Assembly (NCBI GenBank): GCA_964016885.1 | Contig: OZ024747.1 | Span: forward strand, 50,654,001-50,718,000 | Source: Eledone cirrhosa | Lineage: Eukaryota | Length of the DNA: 64,000 nucleotides | Direction of reading: 5' to 3' | Part shown: positions 16,131 to 22,233 of the stretch, in pieces | How positions within the stretch are numbered: position 1 is the stretch's first letter | Layout of the letters: the number at the start of each line of letters is the position of its first letter | Notes under the pieces: generated by a model | Database searches by the model: none | Told to the model about the DNA's origin: nothing | What the model saw: only the letters and a program-made list of their open reading frames with translations | Program-made: the position numbers and the translations under genes

Positions 16131-16724
16131 CCATTCATACATGTAGATACGTGTGCACGTACTTGTGTGAGTGTGCATACGTATCTTACACGCGTTCTAA
16201 GGGATGATTTTTCAGGAGGAATTTACTGAAGTACCACCGTGGAGACTTTCCAATCAGTGACAAATGAAATAAGATCAACTTGCTTCGGGAGAATCTGAGT
16301 ACTTAGTAAGGTATACTTTTCCGTCACACATTCTGTGACCGCCTCAGTGACTAGGTTTTTATTTTGTGTCCCTCCTTTGTTCTATCTTACACCATCTTGT
16401 TTTTGTGTGTTGTGTGCTGTGTGCTTAGTTTATTTATGTGTTTATTTACTTGTCACTAATTGGTTGTTTGTTCCATCTCTGTGTGTCTGACTTGTTTCGT
16501 TAGTTTGGTTTGTGTGTGTGTCTGTATATCTTCATTTTGTCCTTAATTACTATTTGTGATGTTGATATTCCACTACACACACACAGACACACAGACACAC
16601 ACACACACAAATACACACACAAACACACACACACACATATATATATATATATCGGAGATTACTACAGTAAGTAAGGTACTCAATACATAGTAGAGTATAT
16701 AAGGTTTTCAGCTCACTATATTTA

Positions 16725-19700
16725 GTCACTATAGTAGATATGTATATTTAGTATGTAGTATAGAGAGGACTGTTCCCAGTATTTCCCATCAACTCTATAT
16801 AGTTACTATAATATATGTATATTTAGTATGTAGTATAGAGAGGACTGTTCCCAGTATTTCCCATCAACTCTATATAGTTACTATAGTATATATATATTTA
16901 GTATGTAGTATAGAGAGGACTGTTCCCAGCATTTCCCATAAACTCTATATAGTCACTATAGTATATATATATTTAGTATGTAGTATAGAGAGGACTGTTC
17001 CCAGTATTTCCCATCAACTCTATATAGTCACTATAGTATATATGTATATTTAGTATGTAGTATAGAGAGGACTGTTCCCAGTATTTCTCATCAACTCTAT
17101 ATAGTCACTATAGTATATGTATATTTAGTATGTAGTATAGAGAGGACTGTTCCCAGTATTTCCCACCAACTCTATATAGTCACTATAGTATATCTATATT
17201 TAGTATGTAGTATAGAGAGGACTGTTCCCAGTATTTCCCATCAACTCTATATAGTCACTATAGTATATGTATATTTAGTATGTAGTATAGAGAGGACTGT
17301 TCCCAGTATTTCCCATCAACTCTATATAGTCACTATAGTATATATGTATATTTAGTATGTAGTATAGAGAGGACTGTTCCCAGTATTTCTCATCAACTCT
17401 ATATAGTCACTATAGTATATGTATATTTAGTATGTAGTATAGAGAGGACTGTTCCCAGTATTTCCCACCAACTCTATATAGTCACTATAGTATATCTATA
17501 TTTAGTATGTAGTATAGAGAGGACTGTTCCCAGTATTTCCCACCAACTCTATATAGTCACTATAGTATATCTATATTTAGTATGTAGTATAGAGAGGACT
17601 GTTCCCAGTATTTCCCATCAACTCTATATAGTCACTATAGTATATATATATTTAGTATGTAGTATAGAGAGGACTGTTCCCAGTATTTCCCATCAACTCT
17701 ATATAGTCACTATAGTATTTGTATATTTAGTATGTAGTATAGAGAGGACTGTTCCAAGTATTTCCCATCAACTCTATATAGTCACTATAGTATATGTATA
17801 TTTAGTATGTAGTATAGAGAGGACTGTTCCCAGTATTTCCAGTCAACTCTATATAGTCACTATAGTATATGTATATTTAGTATGTAGTATAGTGAGGACT
17901 GTTCCCAGTATTTCCAGTCAACTCTATATAGTCACTATAGTATATGTATATTTAGTATGTAGTATAGAGAGGACTGTTCCCAGCATTTCCCATCAACTCT
18001 ATATAGTCACTATAGTATATGTATATTTAGTATGTAGTATAGTGAGGACTGTTCCCAGTATTTCCCACCAACTCTATATAGTCACTATAGTATATGTATA
18101 TTTAGTATGTAGTATAGAGAGGAGTGTTCCCAGTATTTCCCATCAACTCTATATAGTCACTATAGTATATCTATATTTAGTATGTAGTATAGAGAGGACT
18201 GTTCCCAGTATTTCCCACCAACTCTATATAGTCACTATAGTATATATATATTTAGTATGTAGTATAGAGAGGACTGTTCCTAGTATTTCCCATCAACTCT
18301 ATATAGTCACTATAGTATATATATATTTAGTATGTAGTATAGTGAGGACTGTTCCCAGTATTTCCCATCAACTCTATATAGTCACTATAGTATATATATA
18401 TTTAGTATGTAGTATAGAGAGGACTGTTCCCAGTATTTCCCATCAACTCTATATAGTCACTATAGTATATCTATATTTAGTATGTAGTATAGAGAGGACT
18501 GTTCCCAGTATTTCCCACCAACTCTATATAGTCACTATAGTATATGTATATTTAGTATGTAGTATAGAGAGGACTGTTCCCAGTATTTCCCATAAACTCT
18601 ATATAGTCACTATAGTATATGTATATTTAGTATGTAGTATAGAGAGGACTGTTACCAGTATTTCCCACCAACTCTATATAGTCACTATAGTATATATATA
18701 TTTAGTATGTAGTATAGAGAGGACTGTTCCTAGTATTTCCCACCAACTCTATATAGTCACTATAGTATATATATATTTAGTATGTAGTATAGAGAGGACT
18801 GTTCCCAGTATTTCCCACCAACTCTATATAGTCACTATAGTATATGTATATTTAGTATGTAGTATAGAGAGGACTGTTCCCAGTATTTCCAGTCAACTCT
18901 ATATAGTCACTATAGTATATATGTATATTTAGTATGTAGTATAGTGAGGACTGTTCCCAGTATTTCCAGTCAACTCTATATAGTCACTATAGTATATATA
19001 TATTTAGTATGTAGTATAGTGAGGACTGTTCCCAGTATTTCCCATCAACTCTATATAGTCACTATAGTATATATATATTTAGTATGTAGTATAGAGAGGA
19101 CTGTTCCCAGTATTTCCAGTCAACTCTATATAGTCACTATAGTATATGTATATTTAGTATGTAGTATAGAGAGGACTGTTACCAGTATTTCCCACCAGCT
19201 CTATATAGTCACTATAGTATATCTATATTTAGTATGTAGTATAGAGAGGAGTGTTCCCAGTATTTCCCATCAACTCTATATAGTCACTATAGTATATGTA
19301 TATTTAATATGTAGTATAGAGAGGACTGTTACCAGTATTTCCCACCAGCTCTATATAGTCACTATAGTATATCTATATTTAGTATGTAGTATAGAGAGGA
19401 CTGTTCCTAATATTTCCCATCAACTCTATATAGTCACTATAGTATATCTATATTTAGTATGTAGTATAGAGAGGACTGTTCCTAGTATTTCCCATCAACT
19501 CTATATAGTCACTATAGTATATCTATATTTAGTATGTAGTATAGAGAGGACTGTTCCCAGTATTTCCCACCAACTCTATATAGTCACTATAGTATATCTA
19601 TATTCAGTATGTAGTATAGAGAGGACTGTTCCCAGTATTTCCCAGCAACTCTATATAGTCACTATAGTATATGTATATTTAGTATGTAGTATAGAGAGGA

Positions 19701-21910
19701 CTGTTCCTAGTATTTCCCATCAACTCTATATAGTCACTATAGTATATATATATTTAGTATGTAGTATAGAGAGGACTGTTCCCAGTATTTCCCACCAACT
19801 CTATATAGTCACTATAGTATATGTATATTTAGTATGTAGTATAGAGAGGACTGTTCCCAGTATTTCCCACCAACTCTATATAGTCACTATAGTATATCTA
19901 TATTTAGTATGTAGTATAGAGAGGACTGTTCCCAGTATTTCCAGTCAACTCTATATAGTCACTATAGTATATCTATATTTAGTATGTAGTATAGAGAGGA
20001 CTGTTCCCAGTATTTCCTATCAACTCTATATAGTCACTATAGTATATATATATTTAGTATGTAGTATAGAGAGGACTGTTCCCAGTATTTCCAGTCAACT
20101 CTATATAGTCACTATAGTATATGTATATTTAGTATGTAGTATAGAGAGGACTGTTCCCAGTATTTCCCACCAACTCTATATAGTCACTATAGTATATATA
20201 TATTTAGTATGTAGTATAGTGAGGACTGTTCCCAGTATTTCCCATCAACTCTATATAGTCACTATAGTATTTGTATATTAAGTATGTAGTATAGTGAGGA
20301 CTGTTCTCAGTATTTCCAGTCAACTCTATATAGTCACTATAGTATATGTATATTTAGTATGTAGTATAGAGAGGACTGTTCCCAGCATTTCCCATCAACT
20401 CTATATAGTCACTATAGTATATCTATATTTAGTATGTAGTATAGAGAGGACTGTTCCCAGTATTTCCCACCAACTCTATATAGTCACTATAGTATATGTA
20501 TATTTAGTATGTAGTATAGTGAGGACTGTTCCCAGTATTTCCAGTCAACTCTATATAGTCACTATAGTATATGTATATTTAGTATGTAGTATAGAGAGGA
20601 GTGTTCCCAGTATTTCCCATCAACTCTATATAGTCACTATAGTATATGTATATTTAGTATGTAGTATAGAGAGGACTGTTACCAGTATTTCCCACCAACT
20701 CTATATAGTCACTATAATATATCTATATTTAGTATGTAGTATAGAGAGGACTGTTCCTAGTATTTCCCATCAACTCTATATAGTCACTATAGTATATCTA
20801 TATTTAGTATGTAGTATAGAGAGGACTGTTCCTAGTATTTCCCATCAACTCTATATAGTCACTATAGTATATCTATATTTAGTATGTAGTATAGAGATGA
20901 CTGTTCTCAGTATTTCCCACCAACTCTATATAGTCACTATAGTATATCTATATTCAGTATGTAGTATAGAGAGGACTGTTCCCAGTATTTCCCACCAACT
21001 CTATATAGTCACTATAGTATATGTATATTTAGTATGTAGTATAGAGAGGACTGTTCCCAGTATTTCCCACCAACTCTATATAGTCACTATAGTATATGTA
21101 TATTTAGTATGTAGTATAGTGAGGACTGTTCCTAGTATTTCCCATCAACTCTATATAGTCACTATAGTATATAAATATTTAGTATGTAGTATAGAGAGGA
21201 CTGTTCCCAGTATTTCCCACCAACTCTATATAGTCACTATAGTATATCTATATTTAGTATGTAGTATAGAGAGGACTGTTCCCAGTATTTCCCACCAACT
21301 CTATATAGTCACTATAGTATATGTATATTTAGTATGTAGTATAGAGAGGACTGTTCCCAGTATTTCCCACCAACTCTATATAGTCACTATAGTATATGTA
21401 TATTTAGTACGTAGTATAGTGAGGACTGTTCCCAGTATTTCCCACCAACTCTATATAGTCACTATAGTATATCTATATTCAGTATGTAGTATAGAGAGGA
21501 CTGTTCCCAGTATTTCCCACCAACTCTATATAGTCACTATAGTATATGTATATTTAGTATGTATTATAGAGAGGACTGTTCCTAGTATTTCCCATCAACT
21601 CTATATAGTCACTATAGTATATATATATTTAGTATGTAGTATAGTGAGGACTGTTCCCAGTATTTCGCACCAACTCTATATAGTCACTATAGTATATATA
21701 TATTTAGTATGTAGTATAGTGAGGACTGTTCCCAGTATTTCCCACCAACTCTATATAGTCACTATAGTATATATATATTTAGTATGTAGTATAGAGAGGA
21801 CTGTTCCCAGTATTTCCCATCAACTCTATATAGTTACTATAGTATATCTATATTTAGTATGTAGTATAGAGAGGACTGTTCCATCCGATGTATTTCTCGT
21901 CAACTCTACT
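16725..21910. repeat. 75-bp tandem satellite, ~69 copies
   Basis: Unit AGAGAGGACTGTTCCCAGTATTTCCCATCAACTCTATATAGTCACTATAGTATATGTATATTTAGTATGTAGTAT, highly homogeneous with occasional +2 variants. Confidence 0.99.
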
Positions 21911-22233
21911 GTTGATATTTTGTCAATAACTACACTTAGCATTGGAACTAACCAGGAGTAAAGTAACACTGAATAACATTGATTTTTACAGTTCGATATC
22001 CTGAAGATAAGGTCACGGAACTTTAAAATGTCGATAATACATTCACTTTAATAACAACGGGGAGGTAAGTATGAAAATTTAACAAAAAAATATATATGAA
22101 ATAAAATAAAATTTAAAAAACGGTAAAAAAAACTGAATCCCGGATGAAAGTAAATATATATTGGAAGGTAGATAGTAATCTTCAGCATTTCTTACTCTTT
22201 CTCTCTCTTTTTACCAAAGCCCACACCCATGAC

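Follow-up and report, generated by a model that had tools for sequence, protein, structure and literature searches.

The window analyzed here, a stretch of 64,000 nucleotides from Eledone cirrhosa (contig OZ024747.1 of assembly GCA_964016885.1, positions 50,654,001 to 50,718,000), is microsatellite-rich animal DNA that contains a long tandem array of 75-bp units. Judged from its sequence, this array is probably a transposon-derived minisatellite that arose from a dead hammerhead ribozyme. It is joined to the single tail of an abundant element, designated family E, and appears on balance to be a DNA-level expansion of a damaged Penelope-type terminus that likely does not self-cleave. The original prediction had read the satellite as an amplified segment of a hammerhead-bearing terminus of a Penelope-like element, and this origin was upheld as likely because the hammerhead core of family E is intact in sequencing reads, the array joins the family E tail exactly, and the order of motifs in the units is rare among shuffled units.

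Structure of the Array and Its Junction With the Family E Tail

Tandem Repeats Finder delimited the array at 16715–21882, with a period of 75, 68.8 copies, and 95% matches. Homology to the unit spans 16708–21908, and cutting the minus strand at a fixed anchor resolved it into 68 bulk units and one divergent end unit, that is, 69 units arranged head-to-tail. Among the 67 complete inter-anchor units, 64 are of 75 nt and three of 77 nt; the last bulk unit is of 77 nt. The junction at the left end is exact: unit homology stops at 16708, where GAG-CTGA (16714–16708) closes a partial unit, and homology to the family E tail opens at the next base, 16707. The tail is present once, outside the repeated unit, and a near-repeat of about 10 nt is found at both ends of the array (16708–16718 and 21900–21908). 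As had been predicted, the left flank adjoins a (TA)n run (16638–16652).

Alignment of 16661–16707 with the reverse complement of 40900–40855, in the window copy of family E, gave 87% matches over 47 columns (E 1.8e-10), and it could be extended to 47 matches in 57 columns (16651–16707 against 40855–40910), a result reached by none of 1000 dinucleotide shuffles. The homology originally proposed between 16661–16697 and the reverse complement of 40868–40900 was therefore real and only its limit required correction, since 40868–40900 pairs with 16661–16693 (31 of 33 positions) and not up to 16697. At four of the five substitutions relative to the window copy (40855–40900), the flank carries the majority letter of the reads, and flank and window copy share minority letters at 40859 and 40898; the two may belong to one sub-lineage.

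The Family E Terminus

Four sequencing runs were aligned to 40770–40930, yielding 5452 and 269 contig records and 4920 and 4772 reads, and family E is abundant. The window copy is a fold-back without the 5′ half of any hammerhead; it contains GAAAC (40818–40822), the ACAG/CTGT strands of stem III, a loop with a palindromic centre, the triplet GTA (40835–40837), and the stem I strand GAAG (40838–40841), which pairs with TTTC. Relatives in the reads carry an intact heptamer, CTGATGA, 12 nt ahead of GAAAC. Among the listed loose ends before 40806, the largest group ends in TTTC-CTGATGA in all four runs (205, 23, 1264, and 1127 records), with an agreement of about 0.5 over 30 letters, and a second listed group reads CTGAGGA. 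The tail is optional, since numerous copies stop at 40847 or 40857, in (TA)n. On this anatomy, family E appears to be a Penelope-type terminus whose hammerhead core is intact. As is characteristic of Penelope termini, the reads place the hammerhead of family E in sense orientation ahead of a tail that is optional, and the array shares the tail; (TA)n insertion and inverted or fold-back copies were also found, the window copy and many relatives being fold-backs. No frame for reverse transcriptase (RT) and GIY-YIG domains lies beside the array or the family E copy, and family E aligned weakly with the terminus of the element at 6996–10129 (score 36, reached in 5 of 1000 shuffles). As expected for an animal repeat, family E motifs had no matches in metagenome contigs or in viral contigs.

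In run X4, one contig jumps back 35 bases with 37 inserted letters, that is, a 72-nt tandem duplication inside family E, aligned to 40820–40854 and located elsewhere in the genome. A 30-nt inverted pair (40569–40598 and 40716–40745) brackets a (TA)n run just ahead of the family E copy.

Hammerhead-Like Core of the Units

At least two core mismatches were found in every unit (range 2–5), with four or five in 38 of the 68 bulk units. The heptamer equated with CUGANGA reads TTGATGG in 26 bulk units, TTGGTGG in 24, TTGACTG in nine, TTGATGA in two (those that begin at 17094 and 17396), while the remaining seven show five further forms. The statement that each unit reads UUGAUGG was thus incorrect, as it holds for 26 units and fails for the groups of 24 and nine and for nine others; the UUGACGA of the end unit (21903–21897) and the two units of UUGAUGA type were as described. 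These three units of the 69 (TTGAYGA) come closest to CUGANGA or to its U3-A8 variant, and neither CTGANGA, TTGANAA, nor GAAAC occurs in any of the 68 bulk units or in the end unit. The position corresponding to A13 is G in all 69 units, end unit included. Position 3 is T in 67 of the 69; two bulk units and the partial terminal unit retain C there, and the terminal copies jointly display every canonical heptamer letter. Stem II and the G10.1-C11.1 pair are absent; the spacer measures 9 nt in bulk units and 14 nt in the end unit and lacks a C ahead of G12. Activity had been called doubtful on the grounds of a mutated core and an unconvincing stem II, and with these counts the same can be said more strongly.

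Of the 140 variant occurrences, 63 (12 of 29 alleles) fall in the 15 core positions and 77 in the remaining 60; A6 is altered in 28 and G8 in 10 of 67 units. The core is richer in variants than the remainder of the unit, the opposite of what selection for catalysis would leave.

Stem I is flush with the core and with the NUH triplet in both the modal and the end unit (AGAG/CTCT and GTC). A relaxed descriptor was defined as the heptamer, 6–20 nt, a GAAAC-like motif, GTH, and a 4-bp stem I flush on both sides, and it was tuned after the unit had been seen. It was passed in full by 24 units and gave three hits in the ~59 kb outside the array. Shuffled sequences passed it 9 times in 2000 for the modal unit (three core mismatches) and 6 times in 2000 for the end unit (two mismatches), in agreement with the earlier claim about motif order bracketed by stem I; a looser version (2-bp stem I, up to three core mismatches) was passed by 91 and 148 of 2000 shuffles (5–7%). 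The motif order thus appears to exceed chance, and the test is suggestive only because the descriptor was chosen after seeing the unit.

Rfam returned no hammerhead at gathering score in the whole window, and at 21750–22050 up to E 10 it returned four chance hits, none of them a hammerhead. This blank is weak because the intact-looking motifs at 3930 and 9947 were also missed at gathering score. Folding does not discriminate either and was not counted: the pair probability of stem I in the hammerhead fold was at most 0.001 in the end unit, the modal unit, and a trimer, and the intact-looking control at 3930 likewise missed its own fold. An alternative heptamer register prompted by the alignment (ACGAGAA/ATGAGAA) was also weighed and is no less broken.

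Descent of the Unit From a Hammerhead

The end unit matches family E at 40812–40828 (G12 to A15) in 14 of 17 positions on the same strand, the spacing from heptamer to G12 being 14 nt in the end unit and 12 nt in family E. Such a match was reached in 1 of 1000 shuffles in a narrow test and in 15 of 1000 against 120 nt of family E, the best of six termini tried; comparison of the unit with the five other hammerhead-like termini (9947, 51233, 3930, 4463, and 5860) was not significant (160–865 of 1000 shuffles). In strand and in position with respect to the tail, the unit also corresponds to the hammerhead of family E. From these comparisons, we consider it quite probable that the unit descends from a hammerhead segment.

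The former cleavage site can be placed in different ways. In family E, stem III takes its 5′ strand from the AGT that follows GAAAC, and the later GUA (40835–40837) is the cleavage triplet. If family E is the guide, the AGT after GGAAC in the unit would be stem III and the old triplet would lie some 10 nt farther along. Guided by the AGAG/CTCT pairing instead, one would take the parent to be a sister family whose core was a minimal GAAAC-N-GTC of the kind seen at 4463. Because the triplet of family E is the later GUA, the GUC^CUCU site of the original prediction is uncertain.

Growth of the Array

Variants are scattered along the array, and most are shared between units (18 of 29 alleles, 129 of 140 occurrences); 41 of 67 units are distinct. 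A five-unit block recurs at lag 4 (8 of 300 permutations), and units 11–17 resemble units 29–36 within 0–2 differences. The array therefore has the features of a transposon-derived minisatellite, with 69 units within a transposon remnant, near-repeats at both ends, and shared, interspersed variants. Since the tail occurs once and outside the unit, near-repeats of ~10 nt flank the array, and the variants are shared and interspersed, the sequence points to growth by DNA slippage or recombination over rolling-circle copying. A 75-nt RNA circle would not supply the tail, because it lies outside the unit, and the A13-to-G change, being present in all 69 units, would predate the amplification. Rolling-circle or slippage amplification had both been proposed originally; slippage or recombination is favored and the former disfavored by the outside tail, the near-repeats, and the shared variant occurrences.

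The following sequence of events may be proposed. A short Penelope-type terminus comprising hammerhead, linker, and tail would have inserted into (TA)n, the tail homology and the (TA)n run being visible at the left flank. Its core would have been damaged before or at the first duplication, because all 69 units have G in place of A13 and 67 have T at position 3. A segment of ~80 nt would next have been duplicated by slippage or unequal exchange involving the ~10-nt near-repeats, and a loss of 5 nt would have yielded the 75-mer. More slippage, unequal crossing-over, and conversion would then have scattered the shared variants and copied multi-unit blocks, as the variant patterns suggest. The array appears to behave as a neutral minisatellite.

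Alternative Explanations

Several observations weigh against an origin from a damaged Penelope-type hammerhead. The unit itself shows modest homology to a hammerhead family: its linker and its two stem I strands are unlike those of family E, and with a longer AT-rich query (156 nt) the 17-nt match was reached in 95 of 1000 shuffles. The satellite-type linker was absent among the listed loose ends of family E. Nor did the reads, aligned to family E only, show an intact-core single-copy relative of the unit, for which no genome-wide search was made. The link between family E and Penelope rests on anatomy and on the weak alignment described above, and no RT gene attached to the array or to the family E copy is found in the window. 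The modal unit retains eight of its nine stem I pairs, a number reached by 1 of 2000 shuffles and higher than drift needs, and the block-repeat signal is weak (p about 0.03). Some of these points would suit an unrelated AT-rich sequence that expanded beside or inside the family E tail and whose hammerhead-like motifs are coincidental: the family E match covers 17 nt of the unit (1–95 of 1000 shuffles, depending on the test), the linker is unlike family E, the descriptor was tuned post hoc and is passed by 5–7% of shuffles when relaxed, and Rfam gave no hit. However, strand, order, and place relative to the tail are all right, core halves with a flush 4-bp stem I occur in just 6–9 of 2000 shuffles, and every canonical letter of the heptamer is found in one or other of the terminal copies, so that we regard a coincidence as unlikely.

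A once-active retrozyme of 75–80 nt, copied by rolling-circle reverse transcription, inserted as a multimer, and subsequently decayed and reshuffled, would be in line with the coral tandem hammerhead repeats of up to 62-mers (PMC7229834), with repeats of Penelope-terminus origin whose consensus lengths start at 51 bp (bioRxiv 10.64898/2026.07.22.740005), and with the 72-nt duplication within family E in one X4 contig. Against it, the A13-to-G change is found in 69 of 69 units and is therefore older than the amplification, and circles would not form from an inactive core; moreover, the unit does not include the tail, and most variants recur in several units. This history is improbable, and it keeps some small weight because later exchange could hide an earlier rolling-circle insertion. 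Even less credit is given to the unit being an active variant hammerhead (U3-G8 wobble, G13, stem II nearly absent) that would cleave as dimers or multimers and release 75-nt RNA circles. The stem I pairs kept by the modal unit, the activity as dimers of minimal hammerheads without stem III (PMC4209133), and the GGAAC that is also present in the neighboring motif at 22001 speak for it. It is opposed by the 2–5 core mismatches per unit, including the changes at A6 (28 of 67) and G8 (10 of 67), by the missing G10.1-C11.1 pair, by a core more variable than the rest, and by the report that changes in the core, apart from C3-G8 to U3-A8, usually cause a sharp loss of activity (PMC3088659). If it were true, few animal retrozymes would be smaller than this unit, which would still be accompanied by the flanks of its Penelope parent. 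A protein-coding repeat, suggested by a 25-residue unit open on the plus strand and by frames of 548, 472, and 559 codons across the array, was rejected as next to impossible: 2863 of 5000 shuffled units are also open, three 77-nt units shift the frame, and one stop interrupts it.

Comparison With Known Systems

Minisatellites are described as arising between flanking repeats of 5–10 bp and growing by slippage, conversion, and unequal crossing-over (PMC6947457). As in the transposon-derived minisatellites of that report, the array has fewer than 100 units, lies in a transposon remnant, has a ~10-nt near-repeat at both ends, and contains shared, interspersed variants; it differs in its donor, a Penelope-type terminus, and in the amplified part, a decayed ribozyme instead of an Alu, B1, or long terminal repeat (LTR) piece. 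The array probably falls within this class and outside the retrozymes, since no hammerhead is complete. Non-LTR retrozymes are reported to be tandem repeats usually of 150–450 bp that contain type I hammerheads, reach up to 62-mers in coral, and are expressed as circles (PMC7229834). Consensus lengths of 51–972 bp and a tie to Penelope termini have also been reported, together with a proposal of local amplification of the terminus by unequal crossover and with cleavage in one of nine cases tested (bioRxiv 10.64898/2026.07.22.740005). The 75-nt unit lies below the usual range and within the wider one (PMC7229834; bioRxiv 10.64898/2026.07.22.740005). With these retrozymes, including newt satellite 2 and Schistosoma Sm-alpha, the array shares the head-to-tail arrangement, low GC content, type I order, and link to a Penelope terminus (PMC7229834; bioRxiv 10.64898/2026.07.22.740005). 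In contrast, a complete type I hammerhead in at least two consecutive units, which defines them, was found in none of the 68 bulk units nor in the end unit, and the array is known here from the DNA of one locus.

Penelope termini are described as having a hammerhead in the repeat, an optional tail of 30–40 bp, inverted truncated copies, and (TA)n targets (PMC4209133; PMC8557442; PMC3846280), the (TA)n bias being stated for Naiads and Neptune elements (PMC8557442; PMC3846280). The minimal type I hammerheads of metazoan Penelope-like termini (PMC4209133) resemble family E in the core, the short stem I, and the palindromic centre of loop 3. The array unit keeps their order, stem I, and A15.1-U16.1 pair, and departs from them in U3 with G8, in G13, in a mostly G position 9, and in the lack of stem II and of the G10.1-C11.1 pair (PMC4209133). 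A change from C3-G8 to U3-A8 is tolerated in nature, and the U3 with G8 of the unit differs from this covariation (PMC4209133; PMC3088659).

Both hammerhead-bearing tandem repeats from Penelope termini and transposon-born minisatellites have already been described. Literature searches, in which coverage of subscription journals was mostly lacking, found no paper on octopus hammerhead satellites. The array matters little by itself, and is at best a tidy single-locus example of a proposed route by which local amplification of DNA turns a Penelope terminus into the seed of a tandem repeat (bioRxiv 10.64898/2026.07.22.740005). The array also serves as a warning that hammerhead-like satellites need not be ribozymes or rolling-circle products. 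A slightly more useful by-product is the abundant hammerhead-bearing terminus family E, along with several other hammerhead variants in the same genome.

Other Features of the Window

Table 1. Positions of the array, its flanks, and other elements in the window.
Feature	Position	Strand	Description or evidence
(TA)n run	16638–16652	no strand	3′ end of the element, likely insertion target; from sequence
Single-copy tail, homologous to family E tail 40855–40910	16651–16707	minus	47/57 columns, 0/1000 shuffles
Partial terminal unit ending GAG-CTGA (canonical C3)	16708–16726	minus	Near-repeat of TAGAGTTGA at the opposite array end
68 bulk units: broken hammerhead-like half and AT-rich half	16727–21834	minus	Repeat finding, anchor cutting
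Divergent end unit, +5 nt in core region	21835–21908	minus	TTGACGA 21903–21897, GGAAC 21882–21878, GTC 21876–21874
Second, unrelated hammerhead-like motif	21997–22036	plus	CTGAAGA 22001–22007, GGAAC 22017–22021, GTC 22030–22032, 4-bp stem I
Family E copy	40786–40910	plus	Fold-back hairpin 40786–40841 holding the hammerhead 3′ half, then linker and tail
Decayed Penelope-like element	6996–10129	minus	RT pieces 8602–9716, GIY-YIG piece 8112–8753, C-terminal GIY-YIG

The motif at 22001 stands head-to-head with the array and was the only hit outside it with at most two core mismatches and a 4-bp stem I; its sequence resembles neither the unit nor family E, and no inverted repeat links it to the array end. 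It is framed, on the plus strand (region 21990–22070), by an acceptor-like TTTTTACAG (21983–21991) and a donor-like GGTAAGT (22064–22070), and the 73 nt between these sites contain stops in all three frames. The region may be a non-coding exon, or a further Penelope terminus that has intron ends.

The element at 6996–10129 is one that we take to be Penelope-like from its visible RT and GIY-YIG motifs. Its three pieces were unrecognized by Pfam; Atlas leads were GIY-YIG on 37% of one cluster (score 0.96) and RVT_1 on 16% (score 0.92), and the only named relatives of the RT piece were hypothetical proteins of Octopus vulgaris (2 of 40 hits, the better with 56% identity). Its inverted termini bear a hammerhead-like motif (9947 plus, 7098 minus) with the core CTGAGAA (C3 with A8) and a stem II region of 56 nt, and short or fold-back pieces of this terminus lie at 4103–4315, 14922–15109, 46477–46566, and 58943–59136. 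An intact-looking minimal hammerhead of U3-A8 type (TTGAGAA, 4-bp stem II, GAAAC-GTAC-GTA) is located at 3880–3945 on the minus strand, within an inverted repeat (3857–4031). Three further hammerhead-like motifs, each of a different sequence family, were found near (TA)n at 4430–4470 (minus), 51233–51290 (plus), and 5850–5895 (plus).

Among the remaining repeats, a dispersed element of ~190 nt is very abundant (14243–14555, 26632–27016, 32728–33128, and about 15 other places), with some tandem pairs. A 64-bp tandem array of 8.9 copies (56450–57018), with no second copy in the window, may resemble part of an octopus short interspersed nuclear element. Finally, remains resembling a long interspersed nuclear element occupy 59862–63996 and include an endonuclease piece (Pfam Exo_endo_phos, E 5e-6) and a 580-codon frame (61972–63714) with a zinc-knuckle-like motif.

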